In this document: piece by piece, positions 1-15,214 of the stretch
How the letters are laid out: every line of letters begins with the position of its first letter
How positions within the stretch are numbered: the first letter of the stretch is position 1
From: Candidatus Hydrogenedentota bacterium
GTDB taxonomy: Bacteria > Hydrogenedentota > Hydrogenedentia > Hydrogenedentales > SLHB01
Assembly (NCBI GenBank): GCA_034408725.1
Contig: JAWXCN010000022.1
Coordinates: 1 to 34,636 of the forward strand
Length of the DNA: 34,636 nt
Direction of reading: 5' to 3'
Program-made: the position numbers and the translations under genes
Notes under the pieces: generated by a model
Database searches by the model: none
What the model was told of the DNA's origin: nothing
The model's input: the letters and a program-made list of their open reading frames with translations, nothing else

Positions 1-109
1 CAGGAACCAACGTGATGCCTGGCGTGTCTTCTTGAAACACACCATAATCATCTTCGTTCTTCCGCTTGCGGCGGCCTATATCAGTCTGCGCGGCAACTTC
101 AATGCGCAT
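1..109 (-). CDS. PP2C/Stp1-family Ser/Thr protein phosphatase, 5' fragment (runs off window start)
   Basis: Not in the ORF track. Hand translation from ATG at 109 gives MRIEVAAQTDIGRRKRKNEDDYGVF..., matching the PP2C N-terminal TDxGxxRxxNED motif. AAGGAG RBS at 115-120. Confidence 0.8.
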   Translation of the reverse strand, partial: MRIEVAAQTDIGRRKRKNEDDYGVFQEDTPGITLVP

Positions 110-209
110 GAAATCTCCTTGGACCTGCGGTATGGGAACCATAGCAAAGCAACAAACGGCTGGGCAACCGCAATTTCCTGTTGCGGAATGTTGGCGTTCG
201 CGTAAAAGG

Positions 210-238
210 TTGACTACCTTGTGCAGCATGGCTAGAAT
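210..238 (+). promoter_or_regulatory. sigma70-type promoter for the DnaA-like/coiled-coil gene
   Basis: TTGACT (210-215), 17-nt spacer, TAGAAT (233-238), lying 42 nt before the ATG at 281. Confidence 0.65.
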
Positions 239-280
239 CGCAGTTACCCTTGTTGGCGTACTGCGGGGATTGATAAGGGC

Positions 281-2932
281 ATGAAACGCTTCAACTTCGG
301 AACCTTTCTCGTCGACGATTCCAATCGTCGCGCGTTTCAACTTTGCCAGGATATAGCGGAGCTCAAGCCCGTTTCACCGTTGCCGGCTGTTCTATTGGGC
401 GACGAAGGCTGCGGCAAAACGCACCTCCTCTATTCCATTGTCAATCGTATTCGCGCCGGCACCACCAAAACGGGCCTCGCATATGTCACCGCGGCCGACT
501 TTCCCGATCAGGTCCGGCAGCTAATTGACGATCCGTCTCCGGTCGAGCGCGCGCAGAGCGCGGTGCTGCTGGTGGATCAACTGGACCGATTCACCGACCT
601 GATCGATGAACTCGAGGCCGTGGTCCGCATCTTTCTTGATCACCACCACTACGTCGTGCTCGCGACGAAAGTGCATCCCGGCAGGCTGCAAAACCTCTCG
701 CCAGGTTTCCGCGCGATCATCGAATCCGGGCAAGTCATCCAAATCGTGCCGCGGGGCGCCGAATCACAAATCGAAACCATCAAGCGGCAGCTACGCGAAG
801 AATCCGACACCCAGCTCGCCAACAAGCAGCAGGAAATCGAGCAGTTGCGTTCGCTGCTCAATCGTGTCGGCAAAGAAAATAATCCCGAAGCGCCGGCCAA
901 CGTCGCCGCGTTGCGCGCGGAACTCGAAGCCGAACGCATCGCGAAAGCGGACATGGGCCGCAAACTTGCCGAAGCGCGTGAAGCCGCGGAAAACGCGCGC
1001 GAAGAAGCATCACGTGTGCTCGGCGTTGCGTCAACGGACGCGGACGATCTTGAAGCAACCCGCAATGCCTCGCGCGTGACCGAACTCGAACGGCTCGCCG
1101 ATGCCTTGCGCGAAGAAGCAAACCAGGCGCGCATGGAAGCATCGGAAAACCTCGATACTGCGCGCGAACTTCATGAACAGCTCGAACAAATTCGCGCTGA
1201 CGCCGCAAGACATGTCATCGCGGCGGATGAAGCGCGCGAACAGGTCGAGCGCGTCGAGACGGAAACCACCGAGGCATTCGCCAGGGCCGGCGCCGCGGAC
1301 GCGGAGCTCGAGGTTGTCCGCGCCGCAATTGCCGCCGAACAGCAGACCGTCCACGACCTGAAGTCGCGGATGGAACAACTGGAATCTGAATCCGCCGCCG
1401 AACGCGCACGGTTCGACGAATTGCGAGAGGAGCTGGAACAGACGCACGCTACGTCCAGCCAGCGCGGTTCACAGTTGGCCGAACTACAGGGCCTGTTCGA
1501 CCAAACCAGCGGCGAAGCATCCGGCGCGCGTGAACAGTACGCCGCGGTACAGGAGGAACTGCAAGAAACGTCGGCGCAACTCGCGCAGGCGGAAGGTTCC
1601 TCGCGGCAATTGCGCGAACATCTTCAACAAGTTCAGGCCGAAGCCGAATCATTGCGCGCGCAAGCCGATGCGCAACGCGCCGAAGTGGACGAACTCCATG
1701 CGCAACTCGCCGCTGCCCGCGAAGAATCCCAACGCGCCGGCGCCGAAGCGGAAAGCATGCGCGCCGTGATGTCGGACACGGATCGCTTGCAGCAGGAGTT
1801 CGCCGACGTGAAATCGGCCCTCGACGAGGCGCGGGGAGATGCCCAGCGCCATCAACGCGAGCGCGACGAGCTGGAAGCCCAAGGCACCACGCTCACCGCG
1901 CAGTTGGACGAAACCCGCGCGGAATCCAATGCAGTCGTGAACCGCATGCAGACAGTGTTGGCCCAGATCGAATCCGTGCGCGAACGCGCCCACGATCAGC
2001 GCGAAGCGCAACGCGCGCAGATCGAAGAATTGGAAGCGCTGCTCGAAACGCAGGCCCGCGCCGCGGTCCAGCCCGATGTACTCGCCGCGGTCAAAGCCCA
2101 GGCCGACGACGCTGTCGCGCAGATCGATGCGCTCCGTCACGACTTTGATCGCGAACGTGCGGAAATGGCTTCCGCGCACACCGCGACGCAAGCCGGGTAC
2201 GATGCGCAGATTCAATCCCTGCGCCACGAACTCGACTCGACCCGCGCCGAGGCAGAACAGGTCGATTCCGAACGCGAAACGCTGCACGTCGAACTCGAAC
2301 GGATTAAACACGACGTCGAATCCACCCGCGCGCACATCGGCGAACTCATCCAGGCGCGCGAATCCGCCGCGGCGACCTACCTCGAAACCGAACGAGACCG
2401 CGAACAGTTGCGCGCATCATCCGCCCAGGAACGCGAACAACGCATGAAGTTCCAAAGCGAAGCCGCGAAACTGCGCGCCGAACGCGACGCCGCGCGCGCC
2501 AAACTTGATAGCGTCGAGCAATCGCTAAACGAACGCATCGCGGAACTCGACACCATGAAACGCAACGCCGCCGCCGCCCAATCGCTCGCGGGTGAACTCG
2601 AAAGCCGCATCGCCCGCCTCGAAACCGAACGAGAATCCCTCAAACAAACCGCGCGAAACCTCCAGTCCCAAATGGAAAACGTCGCCAACAACCTCATGCA
2701 AAGCGGCCAGGCATTCTTCGCGGCTCTCGGCGGGAACCCCGCATCCAACCCAGGCGCAAACGGAAATGACGATTCACAACCCGACACCCGCTCCACCTCC
2801 CCCTTCGGCAATACCCCGGCGCGCCTGGCCGATACCCCCGGCGAATCCTGGGGCCCCGGCGGCGTATCCGTGCTGCGCCCACTTGATGATCTGGAACCAT
2901 TTGATGAGGAAGGTTCTGGCCGGGATATATAA
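281..2932 (+). CDS. DnaA/Hda-type AAA+ ATPase domain fused to a long coiled coil (not a canonical DnaA)
   Basis: aa 1-157 align by eye with DnaA domain IIIa (FNFGTFLVDDSNRRA; Walker A GDEGCGKTHLL; Walker B VLLVDQ). aa ~160-815 are E/A/Q/R/L-rich heptad coiled coil, followed by a disordered Pro/Gly/acidic tail. Confidence 0.75.
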   Translation: MKRFNFGTFLVDDSNRRAFQLCQDIAELKPVSPLPAVLLGDEGCGKTHLLYSIVNRIRAGTTKTGLAYVTAADFPDQVRQLIDDPSPVERAQSAVLLVDQLDRFTDLIDELEAVVRIFLDHHHYVVLATKVHPGRLQNLSPGFRAIIESGQVIQIVPRGAESQIETIKRQLREESDTQLANKQQEIEQLRSLLNRVGKENNPEAPANVAALRAELEAERIAKADMGRKLAEAREAAENAREEASRVLGVASTDADDLEATRNASRVTELERLADALREEANQARMEASENLDTARELHEQLEQIRADAARHVIAADEAREQVERVETETTEAFARAGAADAELEVVRAAIAAEQQTVHDLKSRMEQLESESAAERARFDELREELEQTHATSSQRGSQLAELQGLFDQTSGEASGAREQYAAVQEELQETSAQLAQAEGSSRQLREHLQQVQAEAESLRAQADAQRAEVDELHAQLAAAREESQRAGAEAESMRAVMSDTDRLQQEFADVKSALDEARGDAQRHQRERDELEAQGTTLTAQLDETRAESNAVVNRMQTVLAQIESVRERAHDQREAQRAQIEELEALLETQARAAVQPDVLAAVKAQADDAVAQIDALRHDFDRERAEMASAHTATQAGYDAQIQSLRHELDSTRAEAEQVDSERETLHVELERIKHDVESTRAHIGELIQARESAAATYLETERDREQLRASSAQEREQRMKFQSEAAKLRAERDAARAKLDSVEQSLNERIAELDTMKRNAAAAQSLAGELESRIARLETERESLKQTARNLQSQMENVANNLMQSGQAFFAALGGNPASNPGANGNDDSQPDTRSTSPFGNTPARLADTPGESWGPGGVSVLRPLDDLEPFDEEGSGRDI

Positions 2933-3205
2933 GGCGAAGCAAAACGCTCACGTGAAAGGCAGGCTTTCCGAGCTTCGAGGCGCCCGTGCCGCTAACATCT
3001 GCCTTCGCCAAATCTTTTAATCTTCCTTCGAGACTTTGATGCGTTTCCTTCTCTGCGCCCCCGGTATTTGCAAAATCTACGAACGATTGTCTCTGTGCAA
3101 ATCTCTCGCCATGGACAAGGATGGTTTCGCGTTGAAATCGCTTTGGTGTTTGTTTGGGTGGTATCCTTTTACCTTTATGGCCTTTCACTCATTTGGTGGC
3201 GATAC

Positions 3206-4039
3206 GTGTTGGACCAACAGAACCTGATTCGCGCGGCGTTGCGCGAGGACATTGGGCACGGCGACGTGACAACGCTGGCGCTCGTGCGCGCGGATGCGCG
3301 GTGCCGCGTGCGGTTGCACGCGAAGCAGGGCGGCGTGGCGAGCGGGATGGGTGTGTTTCGCGGGGTGTTCGACGAGCTCGATGCGGACGTGGCCGAATGG
3401 TCGGCGATGGATGATGGCGCGCGGTTTGCCGGGGGCGATACGCTGGTGTCGTTTGCGGGGGCGACGCGAGCGGTGTTGAGCGGGGAGCGTGTGGCGCTGA
3501 ATTTTGTGCAGCGGCTTTCGGGGATCGCGACGCAGACGGCGGCGATGGCGGAGCGCGTTCAGGGGTTGCCCGTGCGCATTTGCGATACGCGTAAGACGAC
3601 TCCATTGCTGCGGGCGCTCGAGAAGCAGGCCGTGTTGCACGGCGGCGGCGCAAACCACCGGTTTGGGTTGTACGACGGCGTGCTCATTAAGGAGAATCAT
3701 ATAGCCGCGGCGGGCGGCGTTGGCGAGGCGGTGCGGCGCGCGGCGCGGCATGCGCATCACCTGATGAAAATTGAATGCGAGGTCACGGACCTTGATGAGT
3801 TTGACGAGGCGGTCGCGGCGGGGGCGCAGGTGATCCTGCTCGACAACATGCCGCTTGATGCCATGCGGGAGGCGGTGAAGCGCGCGAAGGGTTCGGGTGT
3901 GTTGCTCGAGGCGAGCGGCAACGTCACGTTGGAACGCGTGCGTGCGATTGCGGAGACAGGCGTGGACATCATTTCGGCGGGGTCGCTCACGCATTCCGCG
4001 CCGGCGATTGATCTGTCGCTCGATATTTCCAATGCCTGA
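3206..4039 (+). CDS. nadC: nicotinate-nucleotide pyrophosphorylase (quinolinate phosphoribosyltransferase)
   Basis: Motifs EDIGHGDVTT, ERVALNF, DTRKTTP, NHRFGLYD..LIKENH, LLDNM, EASGN. Start is likely GTG 3206 or TTG 3209 rather than 3068. Confidence 0.95.
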   Translation: MLDQQNLIRAALREDIGHGDVTTLALVRADARCRVRLHAKQGGVASGMGVFRGVFDELDADVAEWSAMDDGARFAGGDTLVSFAGATRAVLSGERVALNFVQRLSGIATQTAAMAERVQGLPVRICDTRKTTPLLRALEKQAVLHGGGANHRFGLYDGVLIKENHIAAAGGVGEAVRRAARHAHHLMKIECEVTDLDEFDEAVAAGAQVILLDNMPLDAMREAVKRAKGSGVLLEASGNVTLERVRAIAETGVDIISAGSLTHSAPAIDLSLDISNA

Positions 4040-4772
4040 CACCGCGACGCGCCCTCCCCTGCTCGCGACGCCGTTGGTGACGCACGTCGTCGGCTCTCGC
4101 GTGTTGATCTACGAGAGCATCGGCTCTACCAGCGATTGCGCGTTGCGCCTTGGGGGCGACGGCACGGTAATCGTCGCGAATGAGCAGACGGCAGGCCGCG
4201 GCAGGCACGGTCGCACATGGCACAGCGAGGCGGGCAAAGGGTTGTGGTTCAGCGTTGCGTTCGAGCATGCGATAGAGGGATTGGCGTTTGCCGCGCCGCT
4301 GGCCGTGCGAGACGCAGTTGCGCCGCTGGTGCGCGCGACGATTAAATGGCCCAACGATGTGTTGATCGGTGGCAGAAAATTCTGCGGCGTGTTGATTGAA
4401 ACGAGGCGGGGCCGCACCGCGCTGGGCATAGGCATCAACGCGCATCATGCCGAATCGGATTTTCCGGATGAGCTGCATGGGCGCGCGACTTCCATTGAAG
4501 CGGCGACGGGGGTGCATTGGGACCGCGGCGAATTGTTGCGCGATGTTTTGACCCGCCTTGATGAACGGATTATGGTGATCCGATCAGGCGGACTGGATGG
4601 GGTGTTCGCTGAGTGGGCGGAGGCGTGCGGCCTTGTTGGCAGGCGCATGCGCGCGGCGGGGATGGAAGGCCGCGTACACGCGATTGACACGGACGGCGCG
4701 CTCGTGATGGAAACGGCGGCGGGGTTGCGCCGCGTGTTGTTCGGCGAGCCGATAGAATTGGAGGGAAACTAG
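4032..4772 (+). CDS. birA: biotin-[acetyl-CoA carboxylase] ligase lacking the N-terminal HTH (monofunctional)
   Basis: Motifs QTAGRGRHGRTW, KWPND, KFCGVL, GIGIN. ATG 4032 overlaps the nadC stop. Confidence 0.9.
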   Translation: MPDTATRPPLLATPLVTHVVGSRVLIYESIGSTSDCALRLGGDGTVIVANEQTAGRGRHGRTWHSEAGKGLWFSVAFEHAIEGLAFAAPLAVRDAVAPLVRATIKWPNDVLIGGRKFCGVLIETRRGRTALGIGINAHHAESDFPDELHGRATSIEAATGVHWDRGELLRDVLTRLDERIMVIRSGGLDGVFAEWAEACGLVGRRMRAAGMEGRVHAIDTDGALVMETAAGLRRVLFGEPIELEGN

Positions 4773-4775
4773 CGC

Positions 4776-5552
4776 ATGTTGCTCGTCATGGACGTTGGCA
4801 ACTCGCATACGAAGCTCGGCTTGTATGACGGCGAGTCTCTCATTGCGCATTGGCGGCTGGCGACAACGTCGGCGCGAACGACAGACGAGCTGCGCATTAT
4901 GCTTACGAGCCTGCTCTCGCAGGACGACATATCACCACGGTCGATAACCGGGTGCTGCATCGCGAGCGTGGTGCCGCCGGTGAACCCGATGATCGAGGCG
5001 ATGTGCAACGTGATGTTCGGCGTAGCACCTCTATTCGTAGTGCCGGGCGTGCGCACTCGGATTACCATAAAGGTGGAAAACCCGAAGGAAGTCGGCGCGG
5101 ACCGTATCGTGAATTCCGTTGCGGCATCGGAAGCATTTGGCGGGCCGGTGGTGGTCGTGGATTTGGGTACGGCGACCAAGTTCGAGGTCATCTCCGAGCA
5201 TGCGGAATATCTTGGCGGGGTCATCGCGCCCGGCGTGCAGATTTCCGCGGACGCATTGTTCGATCGCTGCGCAAAACTGGCACGCGTAGAAATCATCACC
5301 CCGGACCATGTCATCGGCAAGGACACCGTATCGCACATTCGCGCGGGCCTGACGTATGGTAACGCGGGCATGGTGGACGGACTCGTCGCGCGGATTGCGC
5401 ACGAAATGCGCGCAACGCCGACAGTCGTGGCGACGGGCGGATTCGCCCCGTTGATCGGGCCCTTGTGCAGCCGGATCAATCACGTCGATCCGCTGCTCAC
5501 ATTGAAAGGGTTGCGCGCGGTATTTTCAAAAAATGAGAAGTCACTCGTATGA
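4776..5552 (+). CDS. coaX: type III pantothenate kinase
   Basis: Motifs DVGNS, SVVP, GADR, DLGTAT, GGVIAPG, ATGG; birA-coaX synteny. Confidence 0.95.
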   Translation: MLLVMDVGNSHTKLGLYDGESLIAHWRLATTSARTTDELRIMLTSLLSQDDISPRSITGCCIASVVPPVNPMIEAMCNVMFGVAPLFVVPGVRTRITIKVENPKEVGADRIVNSVAASEAFGGPVVVVDLGTATKFEVISEHAEYLGGVIAPGVQISADALFDRCAKLARVEIITPDHVIGKDTVSHIRAGLTYGNAGMVDGLVARIAHEMRATPTVVATGGFAPLIGPLCSRINHVDPLLTLKGLRAVFSKNEKSLV

Positions 5553-6166
5553 GGCGCGGACTTGCACTCGCGTGTGCGTTTCTCGCCGCGGCGTGTTCGC
5601 AAAAACCGGTGGAGACGACGGTTGCACCGGCCCCGGCGCAGACCGCGGAAATGCCTGCTGCTTCTCCCGACGCCGCGCCGGTGTCGACGCCTGGGCAAAT
5701 TCAGGAGCCTGAAGACTTTGCAACGATAGGCAACACTACCCTCCGGTTTTTTGATGACGTACTTGAAAGCGATCAACCCAAAACGCCCACCTTTGAATTG
5801 CGCGCGCCAAAACTTTCCATGACGGAAGACAACGTCTGGGTCGTTGAGCAGGCGACCGCAGTCGCGTTCGCCGAAGACGGATCGGAGACGACGTTCGTTG
5901 CGGGCGCGGGACGGTTTGATGACAACACAAAAACGGCGATATTGTCGGGCGGCGTGAACGTGACGTTCGGCACGCAGCAGGTCGCGTTGCAGGACATGAC
6001 GTGGTCGAACGAAACGCATACCGCTTCTTCGTCGAACCCGGTGACGGTGACCGACGGCGAGACCCGGCTGGAAGCGGCGAGTATGGAGTATCACGCCCAC
6101 ACCAAAACGCTTCTTCTCCACGGATTGTCCGGGACGGTCAGCATGAAGCGGGCACAGGCGGAATAA
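5549..6166 (+). CDS. lptC: LPS export protein LptC-like, with lipoprotein signal peptide
   Basis: Lipobox LAAA-C at aa 16, Pro/Ala linker, beta-rich domain (GRFDDNTKTAILSGGVNV, SSNPVTVTDG). Located upstream of the lptA-like gene and lptB. Confidence 0.7.
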   Translation: MRRGLALACAFLAAACSQKPVETTVAPAPAQTAEMPAASPDAAPVSTPGQIQEPEDFATIGNTTLRFFDDVLESDQPKTPTFELRAPKLSMTEDNVWVVEQATAVAFAEDGSETTFVAGAGRFDDNTKTAILSGGVNVTFGTQQVALQDMTWSNETHTASSSNPVTVTDGETRLEAASMEYHAHTKTLLLHGLSGTVSMKRAQAE

Positions 6167-7539
6167 TGCGCGCTAGCTGGACATGGCTGCTGGGGTGCAT
6201 ATTTTTTTGTGTGATGACACATGCACAGGAACAGACAAACGCGTTCGAGTATGTTGATATCACCAAAGGCGGGCTCGGCGAATTCGTGGACGGGCAACTG
6301 CGCCGCGTTACGGGGGGAGTCGAGCTTGCATTGCGCGCGGCCGATCCGGCGGCAAAGCCGATGGTGCTCAGCGCGCAAGACGTTACGTTTCTTTGGGGCG
6401 GCGATTCGTCTACGCCAAGTGGAATTCAGCTCAGCGGCGGTGTGAGCGTGGACGGCCCGCAGGGCCTGATAACGGCGAACCGCGCCGACCTGGACTTGAC
6501 CGCGGACACGTTGACCTTTTCAGGCAGCGTGCAGGGAAAATCGGAATCGATTGAGTCCTTTGCCGCCGAACGCATCGTGTACGACATGGCGTCCGGCAAT
6601 TCGGAAATGAGCGGGCTCTCCGCGCGCGGAATTAAGCTTGGCAAAGCCGGCGCGGCGGACGGTTTCTCTTCGATGAACATTGATCGCGCGGGTAACGTAG
6701 TCTCAAGCGGTGGCCAGGTGAGAACCATGCAGGGCGGCGTCGCGATTTCGCTTCAACCGCGCGGTGACGGGAAGCCGTTGGTGCTCCATGCGGGCGCGGC
6801 GACGTTTGCATGGAGCGGCGCGGGCGGTCAGCCCACGTCGATTGCGTTGCGTGGCGACGTGCGCGTCGATGGGCCGCAGGGCGCGATCAGCGCGGAGCGC
6901 GGCGATTTCGATCTCGCGAAAAAGCAGCTCGTGTTCTCGGGAAAAGTAAACGGAAGCCTGCCGCAGATAAAACGGTTCGATGCCGATACGCTGAACTACG
7001 CGATGGACGGCGGCGAAACCCTCATGACCAACGTGCGCGCGAAAGGCCTCGACCTTGGAACATCGGGGGAAAAGGAGACATCCAAAGACCCGAACGCGGG
7101 CAAGAGCTACACGAGCATGGACATCGAGAGCGCGCCGCAGGTTTCGCTCGAAGGCCAGAAGTTGAACTGGATGCGCGGAGGAGTAAAACTCGTGATGCAT
7201 TCGGCGGGCCCTGAAGAGAAACCCATGACGATCACTGCTCGGGAGATGTCGTTTGAGTATGGAGAAAGCGATGGCACGCGGCCCCAGCGCATCGTGCTCG
7301 ATGGCGGCGTGGACATGCAATCGCCGGAGCGGAACGTGACGTCGGACAGCGCGGCGCTGGATTTCGCGTCGAACACGCTGAAGTTTAACGGCAATGTCGC
7401 CATTGACACGCCCGACGTGAAGGAATCGACCGCGACGGAATTTTCGTACAACATCACAACGGGCCAAATTTCGTCGAAGGGTTTGAAGGCTAAAAGCATT
7501 CGCGTGTCCAACCCGGAAGAAGAAGAGGCGACCCCGTAG
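6166..7539 (+). CDS. LptA/OstA-like periplasmic protein with three tandem ~132-aa repeats
   Basis: ATG 6166 overlaps the lptC stop; Sec-type signal peptide; three alignable OstA-like units; occupies the lptA position between lptC and lptB. Confidence 0.7.
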   Translation: MRASWTWLLGCIFFCVMTHAQEQTNAFEYVDITKGGLGEFVDGQLRRVTGGVELALRAADPAAKPMVLSAQDVTFLWGGDSSTPSGIQLSGGVSVDGPQGLITANRADLDLTADTLTFSGSVQGKSESIESFAAERIVYDMASGNSEMSGLSARGIKLGKAGAADGFSSMNIDRAGNVVSSGGQVRTMQGGVAISLQPRGDGKPLVLHAGAATFAWSGAGGQPTSIALRGDVRVDGPQGAISAERGDFDLAKKQLVFSGKVNGSLPQIKRFDADTLNYAMDGGETLMTNVRAKGLDLGTSGEKETSKDPNAGKSYTSMDIESAPQVSLEGQKLNWMRGGVKLVMHSAGPEEKPMTITAREMSFEYGESDGTRPQRIVLDGGVDMQSPERNVTSDSAALDFASNTLKFNGNVAIDTPDVKESTATEFSYNITTGQISSKGLKAKSIRVSNPEEEEATP

Positions 7540-8283
7540 ATGGTGAACGCGGCCCCGGATGCGACGCTGTTGCGCGCGGAAGGGTTGGTAAAAAGTTTCA
7601 AGCGGCGCGTTGTCGTGAACGACGTGAACATTGCGCTCGCCGCGGGCGAGGTCGTTGGGCTGCTTGGGCCGAATGGCGCGGGCAAAACGACGACGTTTCG
7701 CATGGTGGTGGGTATGTTGCGGCCCAGCGCGGGCAAGATTTTCTTCAACAATACCGACATCACGCGGTACCCGATGTACAAACGCGCGCGCGCGGGTATG
7801 GCGTACTTGCCGCAGGAACCGTCGGTGTTTCGCAAACTCACGGTGCGCCAGAACCTGCTCGCGGTGCTCGAACATCTGCCCCTGCGGCGCGCGGAACGGC
7901 ACGCGCGCGCCGAAGAATTGATGAAAGACCTCAATATCACGCACCTCGCGGATGCGCCCGCGTACACGCTCTCCGGTGGTGAACGGCGCCGGACCGAAAT
8001 ATGCCGCGCGCTCGTGACGCACCCGAAAGTTTTTTTGTTGGACGAACCCTTCGCGGGAATCGACCCGATCGCCGTATCCGAGTTGCAGGACATCGTGCAT
8101 TCGCTCAAAGGCGCGGGAATCGGCGTGCTGATTACGGACCACAACGTGCGCGAAACGCTGGGCATCACGGACCGCGCGTACATTATTTTTGAAGGCAAGA
8201 TACAGGTTTCGGGCACGCCGGATGAAATTGCGAACAGTGAAATTGCGCGGCGTATTTATCTTGGCGAACGGTTCAGGATGTAA
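7540..8283 (+). CDS. lptB: LPS export ABC transporter ATP-binding protein
   Basis: Motifs [61 protein letters not shown]. Confidence 0.96.
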
Positions 8284-8300
8284 AAGGGATCGCAGGCTGC

Positions 8301-9023
8301 ATGCAACTCGAAATGGGGTTCGTCGCCCCCGCGGACCGCGAATTTAGACTTGAACGCGAGCTGGAATCTCTTTCCGGGATTCGGGTGAAGCTGCACGTCA
8401 CCGACAATACCCGCACGGTCATGTCGATGACGCCGGGCCGCACGTTCAAGGGCAAACGCGTGCGGCTCCATCACATGTTTCTGGATGCTGACAACGACGT
8501 GGTACGCGCCGTCGCCGCCTGGATACGGCATCCGCGCGCGTCCGGCGCGACCCCTGTACTTGATGCATTCATTCGCGACAACCGGCATCGCATGCGAAAA
8601 CGCACGGGCCGCGCAATCGCGATTGAAACCGAAGGCGCTCACCACAATCTCCAGGAATTATTCGACGCGGTGAACCGGCAACATTTCAAAGGCACAATCA
8701 CGGCGGCCATCACCTGGGGCCGCGCGGGATTCAGCCCTCGGCGGTACCAGCGCAGCATTCGTTTCGGGAGCTATACGGTGGACATCAACTTGATTCGGAT
8801 TCATCCGTCGCTGGATCAGGCATTTGTGCCGGCGTATTTCGTGCGGTTTATTGTGTTTCATGAAATGCTGCACGCGCATCTGGGAATAGAAGAAAGCGAA
8901 ACGGGCCGGCGCAAAATCCATACGCGCGCGTTTACGGCGCTGGAACGCGCATATCCCGAGTATGCGCGGGCGATTGCATGGGAACGCACGCCGGCAAACC
9001 TTCGGAAATTGCTCAGGGCGTAG
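8301..9023 (+). CDS. SprT-like/YgjP-type zinc metalloprotease domain protein
   Basis: HEMLH zinc motif, LFDAVNRQHF, ITWG, FGSY, IRIHPSLD and a downstream H..F; basic composition. Confidence 0.75.
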   Translation: MQLEMGFVAPADREFRLERELESLSGIRVKLHVTDNTRTVMSMTPGRTFKGKRVRLHHMFLDADNDVVRAVAAWIRHPRASGATPVLDAFIRDNRHRMRKRTGRAIAIETEGAHHNLQELFDAVNRQHFKGTITAAITWGRAGFSPRRYQRSIRFGSYTVDINLIRIHPSLDQAFVPAYFVRFIVFHEMLHAHLGIEESETGRRKIHTRAFTALERAYPEYARAIAWERTPANLRKLLRA

Positions 9024-10400
9024 TTATGAATCCGCCGTGCCGGGAATTGCCCCCGTCCGCAGGATCGCGCAACCCATTATGCCGGCCGTGATGCTGGCGA
9101 TGAAAGTGCCGAACTTTGCCTGCGCAATGTATTCGGCATTTCCGGCAAGTCCAGGGTCCATGAACGCCAACTCGCCAATGAACAATGCCATGGTAAATCC
9201 GATGGCGGCAATCCAACTGAGACCATATACATGCCGCCACGTCATGCCGTGAGGTAATTCCGCCCACTTTAATTTGACCGCGATCCAGGAAGCGAGAGTG
9301 ATGCCGATCTGTTTGCCGAGAAGCAACCCGAAAATAACGCCAAGCGTAACGCGCTCGAACAACATGGTCCCGATATTTCCAAGTTGCAGCGTTATGCCCG
9401 AATTGGCGAACGCAAACAGCGGCAAGATAAACAGCACGCAAACAGGGTACAGCGCATGCTCAATGCGTTGCAGCGGCGCCTCGACGTCGTGGCACTCTCG
9501 CGTCATGTGCCGGATCAATTCCTGTTGCCGATGGTTTACGAGATAGGGTTGGACGTGGTCTTCGGCGTGAACGAACCGATCCAGCAGAACGCTCAAGCGC
9601 CCCGCGAACAACGGCGTTACGTAGCGCGCGCTTGCCGGCACCGTGAATGCCAACAACACGCCGGCAATCGTCGCGTGTACGCCGGATTGCAGAAAGGCCC
9701 ACCAAACCAGCAGTCCGATCCCTGCGTACGGCCAGGTTTTTCTCACGCCTGCCCAATTCAGGCCGAAGGAGAATAAGATCAATATCCCGCCTGTTAGCAA
9801 AGACGACGTGTCGATCTGTTGTGTGTAGAAAATCGCTATTACGGCTACTGAGCCAATATCATCGGCGATAGCGAGCGCCACCAGAAACACGCTCATCGCG
9901 GGAATGACGCGTTTGCCAAGCAATGCAAGACAGCCCGTAGCGAAAGCAATGTCCGTCGCCATGGGTATCCCCCATCCCCGGATAGATGGCGCGCCCCAGT
10001 TTATCGCCGCGAAAATGGTTGCGGGAAATATCATGCCACCCGCCGCGGCGACCACGGGCAACAATGCGCGACGGAACGACGCAAGTTCGCCGACGAGTAG
10101 TTCGCGTTTTATTTCGAGGCCAACAACGAAAAAGAAAATGGCCATCAGCCCGTCATTTATCCAGTGATGAACGGATTGCGTGATTTCGATTCTCCCGAGC
10201 GAAACGCCGGCGCTCGCATGCCAGAGATCGTGATACCACCCGCTCGCTGGTGAATTTGCGAGCGCCACGGCTCCTGCCGCGCTGGTCAACAGAAGAACGG
10301 CGGATATCAAATCCCACGCAAGGAGTTTCTGGATGAAGGAGGTTTCCTCGAGCGGCGGCGCGTCTCCGGATGCCTCATCGGGCACGTGCTCCGTATGCAC
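9024..10400 (-). CDS. nhaA: Na+/H+ antiporter NhaA
   Basis: Motifs WINDGLMAIFFFVVGLEIKRE, PMATDIAF, LAIADD, SGVHATIAGV, IGFTMALFI. Confidence 0.95.
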   Translation of the reverse strand: MHTEHVPDEASGDAPPLEETSFIQKLLAWDLISAVLLLTSAAGAVALANSPASGWYHDLWHASAGVSLGRIEITQSVHHWINDGLMAIFFFVVGLEIKRELLVGELASFRRALLPVVAAAGGMIFPATIFAAINWGAPSIRGWGIPMATDIAFATGCLALLGKRVIPAMSVFLVALAIADDIGSVAVIAIFYTQQIDTSSLLTGGILILFSFGLNWAGVRKTWPYAGIGLLVWWAFLQSGVHATIAGVLLAFTVPASARYVTPLFAGRLSVLLDRFVHAEDHVQPYLVNHRQQELIRHMTRECHDVEAPLQRIEHALYPVCVLFILPLFAFANSGITLQLGNIGTMLFERVTLGVIFGLLLGKQIGITLASWIAVKLKWAELPHGMTWRHVYGLSWIAAIGFTMALFIGELAFMDPGLAGNAEYIAQAKFGTFIASITAGIMGCAILRTGAIPGTADS

Positions 10401-12983
10401 TTATTTCGCCTCGCTCGCGTAGCCCGCGCTTTCCAGTTCCGCTTTTTCCTCGTCGGTTAATGGAACTGCCGTACCGCCATCCGCGGACTCCGATTCGAAC
10501 CAAATAGCGAATGACGGGGTTTCAGGGGTGGGACCGCTCACAGTCTTTTTGCCCGGCTTCGCGGGGTCTAGCGTCGCGTCGAAACGGGTGCCAGCGACAA
10601 CATCGTCCACCCCGTTGTGAACGTTGAACGGAGATTCCGATTCGATGTGCAAGAGAACTCTCGCATTCGGGTCCTGTGTACGTACGAGGATTTCTTCGCG
10701 CTTGAGCGGCCCAAGTGTTGCCCGGAGCGAATGCGAGGTGCGCTCGAAGAGGTCGGTGCGGCTCATGTTGCCGCCATATAATAGCCTCGCCGTTTCCAGC
10801 GGACTGTCCGAGCTCAATACGAGGTTTCCGCGCCAATCCTCCGAGGGTGACTCGAACGCGATATGCCAGCCGTGCGGCGCGACATCGAAAAAACGGTGCA
10901 ACTCACCGCGCAAAGTTTCCAGTTCCGGCGGCGCGGACGCTATCAGGTTTGTCGCCTCGTGCGGGTCGATTGCAAGGTGATACAACTCCTCCGCTCCGTC
11001 GTGTCTGTTCTGAATCAGTTTCCATTCCGGCGTGCGTACCGCGATGTGACGCTGCCGTCGAATGAATGTCGTTTGAGGAGGAAGCACCTCGCCCGACAGG
11101 CGCCGCAAAAGGCTTTGTCCGTCAGCATCCGGCGTTTCCAGCATTGCCACTTCGAGAATCGTGGGCATGATGTCGATCAACCCCGTCATGGCGGGCACGC
11201 GCGTACCACCGTGAGCACCTTTCGGGAACCGGACCAGCAATGGCACTTGCGCGGACGCTTCGTAGACATGTTCGTGCAGGAACTCGCCATTTTCGCCGAA
11301 TTGTTCGCCGTGGTCCGCGGTGATCACGATAATGGCGTCATCATAAACGCCAAGTGCGCGCAACTTGTCGAGCAGTTCGCCCACCCCGTGGTCAACGCCG
11401 CGCATGCTGTCGTCGTAGAGCGCAATGGCGTATTCGATCTCGTCCGGCGTCAGCGTTTCCCTACCTTCCAGCACTGCGAAGAGCAAGTCCGTTCCCTGGG
11501 GTCTTCCGGGCGCGCGCAGGGACAGTGGTTCCGGCATCTCGTTGGAAAACTTCAGGAATTCCGATCTGGGAGGATAATATGGGTAGTCGCAGCCATCGCA
11601 TTCGGATTCACGAAACTTGCTGTGATGATCATAATTGTGGAAAAAGAGGAAGAATGGGGCGTGCGCGTGTTTGTCGAGCCACGGGTTTACTGCTTCTAGC
11701 GTTGTGAAGAGATCGCGTGTAATGGCGGGGGTCGAATACTTGTCGAATCCGTGCGCGAGGCCGCGGTGAGGTTGTAGCCAGATCCGGTAGCCCGTAAAGG
11801 CCGCGGTGGCGTAGCCCGCATCGCGCAATGCCTCGGGCAGCGTCACGATTTCCTCCGCGAGATTTGTCGTCGAGGTAACTCGGTGATGGGTTGGATACAG
11901 ACCCGTGAGCATGCTGGTATGGGCGGTAAGCGTCCAGGTTTCGGGAGTGAACGCATTTTCGAAGAGCACTGCTTCGCGGGAAAACGCATCAATGTTCGGC
12001 GAGGTGTCGCGCGAATACCCATAACAGCCGAGATGATCGGCGCGGGTCGTGTCACATGAAATAAGCACAACTGGTGTGCTCGCGCGGCGCGCGCGGCTGG
12101 TGATCATGGGATTTCCCCAGATCGACACAACGTCACGCGGGGCAGTCGCCTCCAACACCAGCGTTATGTCCTGTCCGGCATACGCGCCCAAGTCCGCGTT
12201 CAATTCAGTCCATCCGGAATCTTCGTGCGTGATGGTGCTCTGAATGAGGGCGATGGGAGCGCCTTCGGGTTGTGACAGTGTGACGGAGAATTTGGCCGAT
12301 GCGTTTTCAGGTATTGTGTCCCCAGGTACAATCATGCCCGCATGCGCTTCAAACATGGCGCTTTCGGGCACGGTGATCATCCATTCCGCGCGGTCCAGAT
12401 CGAGCGATTCCATCGTGAGGTTGTTCAGCGTAGTGCGGGCCGGTCCTTCCGGCGCGACATACACGAGCGAGCAGGATTCCAACTCGATGCTGCCGCCTGA
12501 ATCCGTCAGAAATGATATGCCGCGTATAGGTCCGCTCCAAAATATTACGTTGTTGAGATCGATGGTGTAATCATGGAACTCGCCGTCGTCCAAAATGGCG
12601 AATGAAAGGTCCTGGTTCCGCTTCGGGGTCCACTTTCGCGGCTCTTGCCACGTAAACCTGCACTGCTTCGTAGTCGAAGCCTTCAGGCGCACACGGCATT
12701 CGGTGTAGTCGCTTGCGTTGAACGCCGGTATTTCCAGACGAACGCCGTTTATGGGTCCGTCGGCTGGAACGGATACAGCGGTGAACGCTTTTGGATCGAG
12801 CACCAGCGGAGCGCGTGTGGTTTTGGCGCGCGATACGAAGTACGTCTGGGTGAGGCGCGTGACAGGCCTCGCGGACGCCGCACGGTCCGTTGCCGTGTCG
12901 ATCGGCTCGTGAATCGCAGTTGTTGGCGATGGACCGCACGCAGTTACCGCTAAAATGATGACTGCAAAAATAAAACGCCGCAT
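10401..12983 (-). CDS. sulfatase-like hydrolase/transferase (alkaline phosphatase superfamily), predicted lipoprotein
   Basis: Motifs LISCDTTRADHLGCYGY, WTLTAHTSMLTG, YDDSMRGVD, TADHGE, ELYHLAIDPHE. Probable start ATG 12983 gives a lipobox (VTA-C). Confidence 0.85.
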   Translation of the reverse strand: MRRFIFAVIILAVTACGPSPTTAIHEPIDTATDRAASARPVTRLTQTYFVSRAKTTRAPLVLDPKAFTAVSVPADGPINGVRLEIPAFNASDYTECRVRLKASTTKQCRFTWQEPRKWTPKRNQDLSFAILDDGEFHDYTIDLNNVIFWSGPIRGISFLTDSGGSIELESCSLVYVAPEGPARTTLNNLTMESLDLDRAEWMITVPESAMFEAHAGMIVPGDTIPENASAKFSVTLSQPEGAPIALIQSTITHEDSGWTELNADLGAYAGQDITLVLEATAPRDVVSIWGNPMITSRARRASTPVVLISCDTTRADHLGCYGYSRDTSPNIDAFSREAVLFENAFTPETWTLTAHTSMLTGLYPTHHRVTSTTNLAEEIVTLPEALRDAGYATAAFTGYRIWLQPHRGLAHGFDKYSTPAITRDLFTTLEAVNPWLDKHAHAPFFLFFHNYDHHSKFRESECDGCDYPYYPPRSEFLKFSNEMPEPLSLRAPGRPQGTDLLFAVLEGRETLTPDEIEYAIALYDDSMRGVDHGVGELLDKLRALGVYDDAIIVITADHGEQFGENGEFLHEHVYEASAQVPLLVRFPKGAHGGTRVPAMTGLIDIMPTILEVAMLETPDADGQSLLRRLSGEVLPPQTTFIRRQRHIAVRTPEWKLIQNRHDGAEELYHLAIDPHEATNLIASAPPELETLRGELHRFFDVAPHGWHIAFESPSEDWRGNLVLSSDSPLETARLLYGGNMSRTDLFERTSHSLRATLGPLKREEILVRTQDPNARVLLHIESESPFNVHNGVDDVVAGTRFDATLDPAKPGKKTVSGPTPETPSFAIWFESESADGGTAVPLTDEEKAELESAGYASEAK

Positions 12984-13060
12984 AACTCTGGACGGTATCA
13001 CAGACTTCCGGCGGGCGGCAAGGAACGGCGCGAATTGCCGATGAGTGCTCATAGGCACGA

Positions 13061-13161
13061 TGCTCTGGTTTAGATTCGCGTGCGCCTGAAGCCTGCGAAT
13101 TTATTGAGGAATTCGAGTACCCCGAAGTGAAAGCGGCGCTGACACGCCGCGGTCCAAGGCG
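13061..13161 (+). repeat. REP-like dispersed element, copy 1
   Basis: 13112-13161 matches 18019-18068 at 49/50 nt; weaker similarity continues about 50 nt upstream. Confidence 0.85.
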
Positions 13162-13234
13162 CCTTTGCAAACGGCCCATGTCTTGGTTAGTATTACCTTG
13201 CGGTTCTTGACCGCGGGGACGGGGAGAACATTTC

Positions 13235-13597
13235 GTGCGATATTCCGGGGAAGAACGCCGGCGCTACATGCGCAGCAAACGCGGATTCGCGTCCATCGTG
13301 GATTCAGGCGGCCCGGGCGTTTTGAACCATATCGATAATATCAGCGCAAACGGCGTGCTGTGCCATACCGTTAAGCCGATTCCGCTCATGACAAAGATGA
13401 GCATGGCACTGGAACTGCCGAGATCAAACCCCGGGCGGATCGATTGCGAAGGAATCGTGGTCCGATGCGAACCCCACGCGGTTGGTGACGATCACTTCAA
13501 GGTGGCTATCCTCTACACCAAAATCAATGACGATGACCGGGATGCCATTCACCGGTTTGTCGAACAAGACCTCGCCACACCCAACGGCGACGTGTAG
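13235..13597 (+). CDS. PilZ-domain (c-di-GMP receptor) protein
   Basis: ERRRYMR (RxxxR) and NISANG (D/NxSxxG) motifs; single domain of 120 aa. Confidence 0.85.
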   Translation: MRYSGEERRRYMRSKRGFASIVDSGGPGVLNHIDNISANGVLCHTVKPIPLMTKMSMALELPRSNPGRIDCEGIVVRCEPHAVGDDHFKVAILYTKINDDDRDAIHRFVEQDLATPNGDV

Positions 13598-13609
13598 CGA
13601 GACCGCACC

Positions 13610-15214
13610 GTGGGCCGCCGCCCCACACGCGATCGACTGCTGTTGCTATTCTGTCTCGCCGTGCTTGGTCTGACAGTCGCCTATCCAACCTTTCGATTGA
13701 TTGTCGAAGCCGTCGCGCACTGGCAACCGGATGCACTGGCGCGAAAAGGCGGCTGGATAGCGGTGCGCAACACGGTTTTCATTTCGTTACTGTCAGTAGC
13801 TTGCGCGGGCGGTGTTGGAACAGCACTTGCCTTCGCGCTTGCGCGGTATTCGTTTCCTGGCCGCGGAGTCCTGGCGGCGCTCGCCTATCTTCCTTTCACG
13901 CTGCCGCCGCTTGTCGGGGTGGTCAGTTTCTATTACATCATCGGCCGCGACGGGTTTATCCCCCGGGGATTGGAACAGGCTTTCGGGTGGGAACACGCCG
14001 CGTTGGAAGGTCCGGCTGCTATCCTCCTCATTCACACTTATTCGTTCTACGTATTTTTTTATGCAATGGTGTCGGCGGCGCTCGAGTCGTTGGACAGATC
14101 TCTGATCGAGGCCGCGCGCACATTAGGCGCGTCCCGCCGCATGGTATTTTTGCGCATCACGCTCCCGCTGTTGCGGCCAGCGTTGTTGGGCGCGGCATTG
14201 CTGACGTTCATGTCGTCAGGCGCGTCGTTCAGCGCGCCGCTGATATTCGGAAACGACTTTCCGATGTTGAGCGTCCGTATTTACGAAGAACAAAGCGCGC
14301 ACAATGAGGCGCATGCACAAACTTTGACCATCGTACTTGCGGCGGTATCCCTGTTGGGTGTGTTGGTCTTCCGTTCGTCGCGCGCGCTGAAATCGGGCGC
14401 AGCGAAAGGCGTGCGGGCGCCGGTCAGAAGCGTGGCGGGACGGTGGCTGGCGTTGGCTGTGGCATCAGCGGTGATTGCGGTGTTGTTGGCTCCGCACGCG
14501 ACCATCGTTTGGCTTTCGCTGGTCGATCACCGGCAGTGGTACGCGGAAGTTTTTCCGGCGGCATGGACGCTGGACAATTACCGGGAGATATTCAGCGACG
14601 CGTCGGCTTTCCGGCCGATTCGGAATTCGCTCTGGATGAGCGTGACCGCCGCCATTGCTTCGTTGGCGGTGGCGCTGCCGGCGGGCTATCTCATCGCGCG
14701 CCGCCGCAGAGGTGGAAGCTGGGTCAATGCGTTGGTGATGACGCCGTGGGCGTTGCCGGGGACGGTGATTGCGATTAACCTCATCGTGGCGTTTAATGAT
14801 CGATGGCTACCGCTTGTTGGTACGGTGTGGATAATTCCGCTGGCGTATTTCGTGCGGAACGTGCCGTTGCTGACCCGGTTTTGCGCGTCGGCCATTGAAC
14901 CTTTTGATGCGTCGCTGATCGAAGCGGGCCGCACGCTGGGCGCGAGGCCATCGTATTGTTTTCGCCGGGTGGTATTGCCGCTCGTTGCCCCCGCGATTGG
15001 CGCTGGTCTTGCCCTGGTGTTTGCGACGTCGCTGGGTGAGTTCGTCGCTTCGGTGCTCTTATGGGTGCCCGCGAACATACCGATTTCGGTGCAAATCAAC
15101 ACGGCATGGCGGGGTTCGGGAATCGGCGCGGCATTCGCCTATAGTGTATTGCTGATGCTGCTGGCGAGCGCGACCTATCTGGTGGCGCGCAGGTTTTCAT
15201 CGCGGCTGGTATGA
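13610..15214 (+). CDS. ABC importer permease, FbpB/ThiP-type (two fused BPD_transp_1 halves)
   Basis: Two EAA loops (EAARTLGAS, EAGRTLGA) and about 12 hydrophobic segments. Confidence 0.88.
   Translation: MGRRPTRDRLLLLFCLAVLGLTVAYPTFRLIVEAVAHWQPDALARKGGWIAVRNTVFISLLSVACAGGVGTALAFALARYSFPGRGVLAALAYLPFTLPPLVGVVSFYYIIGRDGFIPRGLEQAFGWEHAALEGPAAILLIHTYSFYVFFYAMVSAALESLDRSLIEAARTLGASRRMVFLRITLPLLRPALLGAALLTFMSSGASFSAPLIFGNDFPMLSVRIYEEQSAHNEAHAQTLTIVLAAVSLLGVLVFRSSRALKSGAAKGVRAPVRSVAGRWLALAVASAVIAVLLAPHATIVWLSLVDHRQWYAEVFPAAWTLDNYREIFSDASAFRPIRNSLWMSVTAAIASLAVALPAGYLIARRRRGGSWVNALVMTPWALPGTVIAINLIVAFNDRWLPLVGTVWIIPLAYFVRNVPLLTRFCASAIEPFDASLIEAGRTLGARPSYCFRRVVLPLVAPAIGAGLALVFATSLGEFVASVLLWVPANIPISVQINTAWRGSGIGAAFAYSVLLMLLASATYLVARRFSSRLV

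Follow-up and report, generated by a model that had tools for sequence, protein, structure and literature searches.

A DnaA-type AAA+ head on a long coiled coil in the Hydrogenedentota

The gene and its protein

The stretch of DNA analyzed here (the window) is a whole contig of 34,636 nucleotides, JAWXCN010000022.1 (C22), from a Candidatus Hydrogenedentota bacterium whose genome of 5.17 Mb is assembled in 280 contigs and is 92% complete. Close to one end of it lies an open reading frame (ORF) for a protein of 883 amino acids (aa), in which an N-terminal head resembling the AAA+ module of the initiator DnaA passes into a coiled-coil rod of great length and then into a disordered, acidic tail (Table 1). 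The ORF opens with ATG, the in-frame open stretch exceeds it by only 15 codons, and the family backs this start, as M1 is found in 105 of 111 aligned homologs. We describe the anatomy of this family, its pattern of conservation, the selection acting on it and its taxonomic range, and we weigh what such a protein may do.

Table 1. Features of the coiled-coil protein, its gene and the related pilus-operon paralog. Locations refer to the window unless another contig or locus is named; own DnaA is the canonical DnaA of the same genome, and AF2 is AlphaFold2.
Feature	Location	Strand	Basis or remark
PP2C phosphatase gene, 5' end, divergent, cut by contig end	1..110	-	ATG 110..108 after GGAG
Sigma-70-like promoter match TTGACT-17-TAGAAT, 43 nt 5' of ATG	210..238	+	one match vs one expected by chance
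Whole ORF, 883 aa plus stop	281..2932	+	orthologs in 114/135 phylum genomes
AAA+ head, aa 1-155, DnaA domain IIIa-like alpha/beta core	281..745	+	Pfam Bac_DnaA, AF2, Foldseek, dN/dS
Walker A GDEGCGKT, aa 40-47, then H48	398..421	+	intact
DPSP, aa 84-87, particular to the family; flanked by two short helices that stand in for the DnaA initiator-specific motif	530..541	+	4-residue deletion just after
Walker B LLVDQ, aa 96-100; Mg-binding Asp retained, second acid replaced by Gln	566..580	+	3-residue deletion relative to DnaA after it
Sensor-I region ATKVHP, aa 128-133; own DnaA has SSDRPP	662..679	+	alignment
Box VII-equivalent helix PGFRAIIES, aa 141-149; I146 in finger column, conserved R144 two residues upstream	701..727	+	gap-free alignment, AF2 helix
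Coiled-coil rod, aa 160-802	758..2686	+	heptad statistics, AF2 secondary structure, composition, dN/dS
Conserved mid-rod island, aa 560-586, overlapping non-helical 564-603	1958..2038	+	conservation, AF2
Rod-end conserved block, aa 756-780, consensus ~ALRxEAAxQVAxANAQAGExExRLxxL	2546..2620	+	column conservation
Disordered Gly/Pro/Ser/Asp-rich tail, aa 803-883	2687..2929	+	pLDDT < 50, composition
C-terminal peptide ...LRPLDDLEPFDEEGSGRDI, with PLxDLxPLxE-like motif and terminal small residue-Ile	2861..2929	+	homolog counts
838-aa paralog, first gene of a pilus ATPase/regulator cluster	G000:C191 = L068 6466..8982	+
Remainder of the paralog cluster: pilB; pilT; pilS-like kinase; pilR-like regulator	L068 9001..10722; 10759..11880; 11877..13493; 13500..14888

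The head is a DnaA-type AAA+ core

The Pfam model Bac_DnaA (PF00308) matched residues 2-152 over profile positions 3-160 of 162, with an E value of 3e-13 and 50.7 bits against a cut-off of 23 (53.7 bits in the scan of the whole genome). The next AAA-type families, ATPase_2, NACHT and AAA, reached 17-19 bits, under their own cut-offs, so that no other AAA+ family scores better at the N-terminus and the first-pass annotation, which had read this region as domain IIIa of DnaA, is borne out. In NCBIfam, the DnaA equivalog TIGR00362 aligned residues 2-179 with profile positions 106-289 of 437 at 58.6 bits, below its cut-off of 343.9, and the alignments to DnaA models end near residues 175-185. No match was obtained on the protein for Bac_DnaA_C, the domain IV that binds DnaA boxes, or for IstB_IS21 (both Pfam), nor for the Hda models TIGR03420, NF005982 and NF051883 at E<=1 (NCBIfam), nor, with a crude regular expression, for a QL-type beta-clamp motif anywhere along the chain. 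A search of Protein Data Bank (PDB) sequences with the protein returned DnaA entries only (4 distinct sequences).

Structure prediction agrees with this assignment. An AlphaFold2 (AF2) model of residues 1-220, built from a 94-row alignment, has a predicted local distance difference test (pLDDT) score of 87.5, above 90 over most of the head, and consists of an alpha/beta core of five parallel strands (36-40, 65-70, 94-99, 124-129 and 151-155) that runs to residue 155 and is followed from residue 160 by a continuous helix. Judged by the number of strands in the model, the head appears to have the P-loop alpha/beta core of the AAA+ superfamily, with a putative 5-1-4-3-2 type parallel sheet. When this fold was compared with the PDB by Foldseek, DnaA domain III came out on top (8bv3_A, E 2.4e-10, then 1l8q, 8btg, 2hcb, 2z4r and 3r8f), ahead of RFC subunits and Hda (5x06, E 2e-7; 3bos, E 2.5e-7), and all of the top 50 matches were AAA+ proteins. 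An ESM Atlas look-up agreed with a DnaA-type head. Pfam, NCBIfam, the PDB sequence search and the fold comparison all put DnaA first, and a derivation of the head from DnaA is supported.

What follows the core departs from DnaA. The lid subdomain IIIb with its sensor II arginine is absent, since from residue 160 onward the AF2 model shows a continuous helix into the rod, and the rod grows out of the very helix that starts the lid in DnaA. Together with the missing Bac_DnaA_C match, this confirms the initial view that domains IIIb and IV are lacking.

Two cysteines of the head are a family trait of their own. C22 (344..346) is conserved in 102 of 111 homologs and C44 (410..412), which lies in the P-loop, in 66 of 111, where DnaA has Thr/Ala and Leu, respectively; a redox or metal role for them is conceivable.

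Binding residues are kept and catalytic residues vary

By BLASTP, the head is 25% identical to the DnaA of the same genome (E 3e-13). In this alignment Q100 lies opposite the second Walker B Asp and K130 opposite the sensor-I Asp, while the stretch P133-G150 is free of gaps and sets I146 opposite the finger Arg; where the head has FRAII (residues 143-147), the genome's own DnaA reads LISRF. Relative to that DnaA, four residues are deleted in the region of the initiator-specific helix and three just past Walker B. The intact Walker A motif noticed at first is indeed there, as are ATKVHP and FRAII in place of the usual sensor-I and arginine-finger segments. The Walker B motif also stands, but one codon shorter than the 563-580 first given for it.

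Motif columns were counted over 194 aligned heads, except for M1, DPSP, the cysteines and the C-terminal endings, which were counted over 111 homologs. The nucleotide-binding columns are nearly invariant: G45 is found in 191 heads, K46 in 190, T or S at 47 in 191, H48 in 190, and the first Walker B aspartate, D99, in 192. Position 129 is S or T in 187, H132 is kept in 145 and P133 in 174, and the DPSP columns are similarly stable (D84 in 100, P85 in 108 and P87 in 101 of 111). At the second Walker B position, residue 100, we found Q in 115 heads, E in 26, D in 21, H in 11, G in 9 and N in 4, so that 32 heads have neither Q, E nor D. Variation is also wide at position 130, the column of the DnaA sensor-I Asp (S66, N50, R26, A16, K10), and in the finger column 146 (L94, I37, M18, V10, T10, R8). 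Two residues before the latter, position 144 is basic in 151 heads (R127, K24).

The first-pass annotation had spoken of degenerate catalytic residues. This holds for the protein of the window, but the D-Q form of Walker B is a feature of its lineage and not of the whole family: among the 20 loci fetched for comparison, 10 inside and 10 outside the window's GTDB family, D-Q occurs in all 10 of the former, and elsewhere the pair reads DE, DD, DN, DG, DT or DQ. Likewise, the expectation that homologs would have lost their catalytic residues fails in part, as 47 of 194 heads have an acidic residue 100 and three of these (P0103, P0107 and P0109) also have an Arg in the finger column. Judged by these columns, the degeneration is lineage-specific in detail and general in kind, since almost anything is tolerated at the water-activating position while the nucleotide-binding residues are kept.

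Selection points in the same direction. Against orthologs of the same genus and the same family, the ratio of nonsynonymous to synonymous substitution rates (dN/dS) is 0.03-0.07 for the head, 0.16-0.48 for the rod and 0.25-0.47 for the tail; as dS is saturated, only the contrast between the three parts is meaningful. The head is under strong purifying selection. Column counts and dN/dS taken together, the original proposal of a head with a preserved ATP site and degenerate catalytic residues is supported for the protein of the window, in which the residues that serve DnaA for hydrolysis and trans-activation are lacking, and nearly invariant binding residues beside free variation at the water-activating position are the pattern expected if binding, and not turnover, is what is selected.

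The rod and the tail

The long heptad rod reported initially is confirmed by its periodicity and its predicted helices. Over residues 166-805, hydrophobic residues recur with a period of 3.5 (z ~6-7) and the a/d heptad score reaches z 15 against 200 shuffles, whereas periods of 3.0, 3.67 and 4.0 gave no signal against the shuffles. There are only 3 prolines in 640 residues, and the composition is rich in A (19%), E (15%), R (11%), Q (9%) and L (9%). On account of the heptad statistics and the scarcity of prolines, we regard a coiled coil of ~650 aa as real. The full-length AF2 model (pLDDT 73, predicted template modeling score (pTM) 0.36) places helices at 160-197, 208-249, 257-392, 399-563 and 604-802 and disorder from 803. 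The rod is broken near residues 198-207 (P202, P205), 250-256, 393-398 and 564-603 (P598), the last of these being the sole long gap between helices. At ~0.148 nm per residue, its 643 residues would give a length of up to ~95 nm.

Conservation along the rod is patchy. The block at its end, residues 756-780, has a mean column conservation of 0.70, compared with 0.1-0.4 for the remaining rod, and is visible also in a 94-sequence consensus; besides this block and the mid-rod island of Table 1, a further conserved island lies at residues 183-192. Both the length and the sequence of the rod vary widely; leaving aside frames visibly truncated where a contig stops, the strong head matches in genomes of the phylum have open frames of 313-1597 aa. 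A rod of variable length with persistent conserved islands fits a spacer that bears discrete binding sites.

Over their last 60 residues, the tails of the family average a net charge of about -8.6. Within the last 45 residues, 16 of 111 homologs have the PLxDLxPLxE-like motif and 15 an HHVEEL-type motif instead. The chain ends in SI in 28 of 111 homologs and in [STAG][IVL] in 41; among 183 proteins of at least 330 aa, SI is again the commonest ending (31). In three of 194 members (P0110, P0140 and P0186) the acidic tail is replaced by a C-terminal MshEN domain, and in P0140 the P-loop Lys is an Arg. Genomes G077 (L078 2052..4466, minus strand) and G076 (L079 213..2300, plus strand) have MshEN-tailed second copies beside an ordinary one, with both the Bac_DnaA-type and the MshEN domain found by Pfam in the G077 copy; no pilus genes lie near either copy. 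This exchange of an MshEN domain for the acidic tail marks the C-terminus as an exchangeable end for a partner or ligand.

The label PF24161, which stands for the eukaryotic coiled-coil protein CCDC39, was rejected for the 883-aa protein as compositional; in the genome scan, whose control matched nowhere, it gave no match. Separately, contigs of three runs, at higher depth (20-39), lie on both window positions 1081 and 2498 with 22 other letters between and no joint listed, and are probably a similar Ala/Glu-rich coding sequence of another organism.

A phylum-wide family, probably inherited vertically

A strong ortholog (E<=4.7e-25) is present in 114 of 135 Hydrogenedentota genomes. Among the remaining 21, which gave DnaA-level cross-matches or nothing, are a whole GTDB family (f8, 10 genomes) and the only two genomes from outside the order. 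The gene is mostly single-copy, and its head is 85-91% identical to that of congeners and 34-50% identical to those from other families; identity that falls with taxonomic distance and a mostly single copy fit vertical inheritance of a housekeeping function. Contigs of other runs from microbial mats span the junction of head and rod (X2 record 1, window 1-1188; X3 record 10, 546-948). The fusion is therefore genuine and phylum-wide, and the worry that it might be an assembly chimera is removed.

Among wider databases, a word-indexed search with residues 1-180 returned 113 clusters, 110 of which (P0002-P0111) are relatives of 489-976 aa with a head identity of 42-87%. Those with a name are all attributed to Hydrogenedentes except P0087, labeled Nitrospiraceae. 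When 1.84 billion representatives were scanned exhaustively with phmmer, the number of matching proteins was 155 at E<=1e-30, rising to 214 at E<=1e-10 and to 1352 at E<=0.001, and in all of the 150 matches listed the head starts within the first 53 residues. Two further proteins from the word-indexed search, P0112 and P0113 (585 aa; Stahlbacteria, WOR-3), have two tandem DnaA-like AAA+ modules, the first with a lid, and 24-26% identity to the head; their architecture is unrelated to that of the coiled-coil family.

In databases the relatives are called "hypothetical protein", "DnaA/Hda family protein" or "chromosome segregation ATPase", names that hide the architecture of a DnaA derivative. 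A full-text search of the literature found no description of a DnaA-type head on a coiled coil in Hydrogenedentes or among DnaA paralogs, as the initial note had supposed, and neither DnaA nor pili nor AAA came up in a term search of the main text of two Hydrogenedentota genome papers. Both fold and domain were known before, and the head is labeled in databases; what is new is the phylum-wide architecture within the DnaA/Hda group.

Other DnaA-type proteins and related systems

The genome has three Bac_DnaA matches: the canonical DnaA of 462 aa on contig C270 (240.8 bits), an 838-aa paralog on contig C191 (145 bits) and the 883-aa protein. The separate dnaA gene that was to be expected is therefore present, and its product gives the sole Bac_DnaA_C match of the genome; a short Hda-type protein is absent from the Bac_DnaA matches. 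Canonical DnaA was found in 45 of 46 genomes searched. Within the order, genome G032 has three full-length DnaA-like matches (E 7e-193, 1e-95 and 2e-78) besides its pilus-type paralog, and the extra ones could be real dnaA copies or contamination (stated at 5%).

The 838-aa paralog combines a domain with the MshE-type cyclic di-GMP (c-di-GMP) motif (55.9 bits, cut-off 38) and MshEN, a long linker, and an Hda-like AAA+ module without domain IV that keeps Walker B, the box VII Arg and the lid, and that aligns with positions 7-225 of 226 of TIGR03420 at 88.5 bits, below the cut-off. In this genome, and in 10 of 10 others drawn from seven GTDB families, its gene is immediately followed by pilB, and pilT-pilS-pilR come next in 8 of the 10. 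The paralog is retained in the GTDB family that lacks the coiled-coil protein. We found no literature on an MshEN/DnaA-type paralog in a pilus operon. As it heads a type IV pilus operon, DnaA-type modules are used outside classic initiation in this phylum.

The coiled-coil protein shares with DnaA the N-terminal FxFxxF..N stretch, the GxxGxGKTHL P-loop, the hhhhD Walker B, the five-stranded core, the two helices at the place of the initiator-specific motif (ISM) and the helix at the place of box VII. It differs from DnaA in lacking domains I, II and IV as well as the lid with sensor II, in Q100, K130 and I146, in the deletions at the ISM and after Walker B, and in the added 640-aa coiled coil and acidic tail. 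Hda and HdaA are likewise DnaA-derived AAA+ proteins without domain IV that coexist with DnaA, and Hda is among the fold matches of the head. Hda, however, has a lid, an arginine finger and an N-terminal clamp-binding motif, whereas the 883-aa protein has neither finger nor lid, matches no Hda model at E<=1 and shows no clamp-like motif by a simple regular expression; the Hda-like member of this genome is the 838-aa paralog.

Three other systems invite comparison. YabA of Bacillus subtilis, a coiled-coil oligomer that binds domain III of DnaA and tethers it elsewhere, thereby restraining initiation, possibly works in a similar way. It is ~120 aa long, its C-terminal domain binds zinc, it lacks an AAA+ module, and it has no known sequence relationship to the 883-aa protein. 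The loaders DnaC, DnaI and IstB belong to the same AAA+ clade, and IstB appears as a lower fold match (5bq5, E 4.9e-6), but DnaA models far outscore theirs on the head and IstB_IS21 gave no match. SMC, Rad50 and MukB also carry a nucleotide-binding head on a very long coiled coil; theirs is of the ABC type, whereas here a single AAA+ head stands at the N-terminus, no hinge is present, and matches to their models are compositional.

The gene next door

In 15 of the 20 loci a gene for a phosphohydrolase of ~189 aa, HD_3/YfbR-like, lies directly downstream on the same strand (10 of 10 outside and 5 of 10 inside the window's GTDB family), often after a gap of 3-40 bp or with a 4-bp overlap (L019-L036, for example L029 10271..10840). 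By cross-reading the genome scans for the family and for HD_3 by hand, the arrangement was found in 63 genomes. In the window's genus it has been broken, the HD_3 gene of this genome having moved away to G000:C15:26325-26894 (L067). Full-length HD_3 matches are 51-90% identical across the phylum and occur in 116 of 135 genomes; as these include all 10 genomes of the GTDB family without the coiled-coil protein, the pairing is not obligatory. YfbR is a 5'-deoxynucleotidase; on the equivalog model for that activity, which has a cut-off of 122 bits, the HD_3 protein reaches only 30.

Upstream neighbors at 10 loci are mutually unrelated and four of them belong to no family; the others are acetyl-CoA synthetase, iPGM, a T2SSE ATPase, an ARMT1-like phosphatase, an SNF2 helicase and an M19 dipeptidase. 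DnaA boxes (TTATCCACA, with at most 1 mismatch) occur 7 times in the window, a number reached by 8 of 100 shuffles, and none is near the gene. The clues from context, namely HD_3, the MshEN tails and the pilus-operon paralog, conflict with one another.

A proposed nucleotide-dependent docking head on a stalk

We put a probability of roughly 55% on the following account, in which the 883-aa protein is an ATP-binding, hydrolysis-poor switch head on a stalk and acts as an adaptor or tether. A DnaA-type AAA+ module would have been trimmed to its nucleotide-binding core and its first lid helix extended into a long coiled coil, leaving a head that serves as a nucleotide-binding switch or docking module and not as a motor. 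Such a head would bind Mg-ATP through Walker A and D99, and its hydrolysis of ATP in this lineage would be poor or nil, as expected from a Gln in place of the second Walker B acid, the lack of sensor II and the lack of an Arg at the DnaA finger position. Two chains probably come together through the rod to form a stalk of up to ~95 nm, and the short conserved peptide at the end of the acidic, disordered tail would dock a second partner; with one partner at the head and another at the tail, the protein would link the two.

Several points weigh against this account. Lacking a lid and sensor II, the head may bind ATP weakly, and its conserved P-loop might accommodate a different ligand or be kept for structural reasons alone. 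The second Walker B residue is acidic in 47 of 194 members, and a conserved basic residue (R in 127, K in 24 of 194) precedes the finger column by two positions, so that hydrolysis in trans by a shifted finger is possible in the family, or may proceed slowly in the present protein. The full-length model, which is of a monomer, has a pTM of 0.36.

Were the switch-and-tether account right, the family would matter whatever its partner, as a natural AAA+ module turned into a nucleotide-dependent docking head. Hda and HdaA, DnaA paralogs without DNA binding, are central regulators of initiation and are known mainly from Proteobacteria. The present family is a third kind of DnaA derivative, conserved throughout an almost wholly uncultured phylum, reduced to the nucleotide-binding core and with catalysis apparently given up in most lineages, and set on a stalk that could reach across about a tenth of a cell. 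Together with the MshEN/Hda-like paralog, it suggests that in this phylum the initiator AAA+ fold has been diversified to serve tasks beyond classic initiation.

The rival explanations differ mostly in the partner they name. The likeliest of them, which we would still bet against at some three to one, makes DnaA that partner, as the initial note had proposed: the ATP-bound head would accept the arginine finger of the end protomer of a DnaA-ATP oligomer and, being unable to present a finger in return, would terminate or sequester that oligomer, while stalk and tail would tie the complex to another structure, in the note a polar or cytoskeletal scaffold. The idea arises readily from an anatomy in which the ATP site is kept and the finger lost. 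No other AAA+ family comes as near to the head in sequence and fold as DnaA does, canonical DnaA coexists with it, and no short Hda-type protein is among the Bac_DnaA matches of this genome; the function of YfbR would further link the usual downstream gene to DNA precursors. However, the gene is unlinked to dnaA, the window is not enriched in DnaA boxes and the head is only 25% identical to its own DnaA. The segments equivalent to the ISM and following Walker B are shortened and re-patterned (DPSP), so that the DnaA-DnaA interface need not have been kept, and the HD_3 protein is far under the deoxynucleotidase cut-off and persists in 10 genomes that lack the coiled-coil protein. A complex prediction of the head (residues 1-175, 93 rows) with the genome's DnaA (residues 120-362, 30 rows), 2 ATP and 2 Mg returned no answer (score 0.00 in both runs, without controls) and counts neither for nor against this reading.

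Less plausible is a scaffold for pili, c-di-GMP signaling or the envelope, working with the 838-aa paralog or PilB-type ATPases, in which the DnaA ancestry would be of historical interest only. The adjacency of the paralog to pilB, its MshE-type c-di-GMP domain, the MshEN-tailed family members (P0110, P0140, P0186 and the copies in G077 and G076) and a T2SSE ATPase gene directly upstream at 1 of 20 loci speak for it. Yet the gene is in a pilus cluster at none of the 20 loci, MshEN tails are rare and the copies that carry them lie away from pilus genes, and the paralog is kept in a GTDB family without the coiled-coil protein.

We hold it to be similarly improbable that the protein forms a self-assembling, nucleotide-gated cytoskeletal element, in which ATP-bound heads of different dimers would touch, with R/K144 serving as a shifted finger, and would assemble into filaments or a lattice, made long-lived by slow or absent hydrolysis. 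Residue 144 is basic in 151 of 194 heads, the D-Q Walker B resembles engineered AAA+ trap mutants that stabilize oligomers, and the rod gives weak matches to intermediate-filament and SMC coiled-coil models. Those matches, however, are compositional and far under their cut-offs, and residue 144 is two residues off the DnaA finger register on its helix.

A bolder combination, to which we likewise give long odds, is an ATP-locked, DnaA-derived pseudo-initiator on a ~95-nm tether that caps oligomers of a DnaA-type protein, either DnaA or the Hda-like paralog of the pilus operon, with the C-terminal peptide or MshEN domain anchoring it to an envelope or polar partner. If it were true, a tethered pseudo-initiator would couple the licensing of replication physically to surface or pilus signaling, and would represent an unrecognized class of cell-cycle hardware.

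Two further identities are very unlikely. A chromosome-organizing ATPase of the SMC/Rad50/MukB type, suggested by NCBIfam SMC/Rad50 models on the rod (22-61 bits) and by the JGI name "chromosome segregation ATPase" on four homologs, is effectively refuted by the domain tests, as the matches lie inside the rod only, with cut-offs of 300-1087 bits, and the protein has an AAA+ head, a disordered C-terminus and no ABC half-site, C-terminal head half, hinge or zinc hook. An anti-phage defense module of NTPase, coiled coil and HD effector is hardly more credible: an ATPase with a long coiled coil beside an HD gene recalls some such systems and PADLOC gave weak JetC/LmuB matches (16-28 bits), but these are confined to the rod, neither the head nor the HD protein matches anything in PADLOC, and, unlike the contents of defense islands, the gene is spread through the phylum, mostly occurs once per genome, is inherited vertically and experiences strong purifying selection; its neighbors are housekeeping genes.

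Other features of the window

The promoter match upstream of the gene is weak, since one such match was found where one is expected by chance, and no tandem DNA repeats occur within 1..3100. A neighbor homologous to the divergent PP2C phosphatase gene is found in 5 of the 20 loci, the full-length one at L024 being a PP2C_2 protein (67.6 bits); that PP2C might act on the Ser/Thr-rich tail is pure speculation.

Downstream of the gene, the run nadC-birA-coaX-lptC-LptA-like gene-lptB is kept in a single locus of the same genus (L017) and in 0 of the 19 other loci fetched. In the window, this run opens the interval 3068..13058 and is followed there by genes for a SprT-like protein, NhaA (minus strand) and an 884-aa sulfatase (minus strand).

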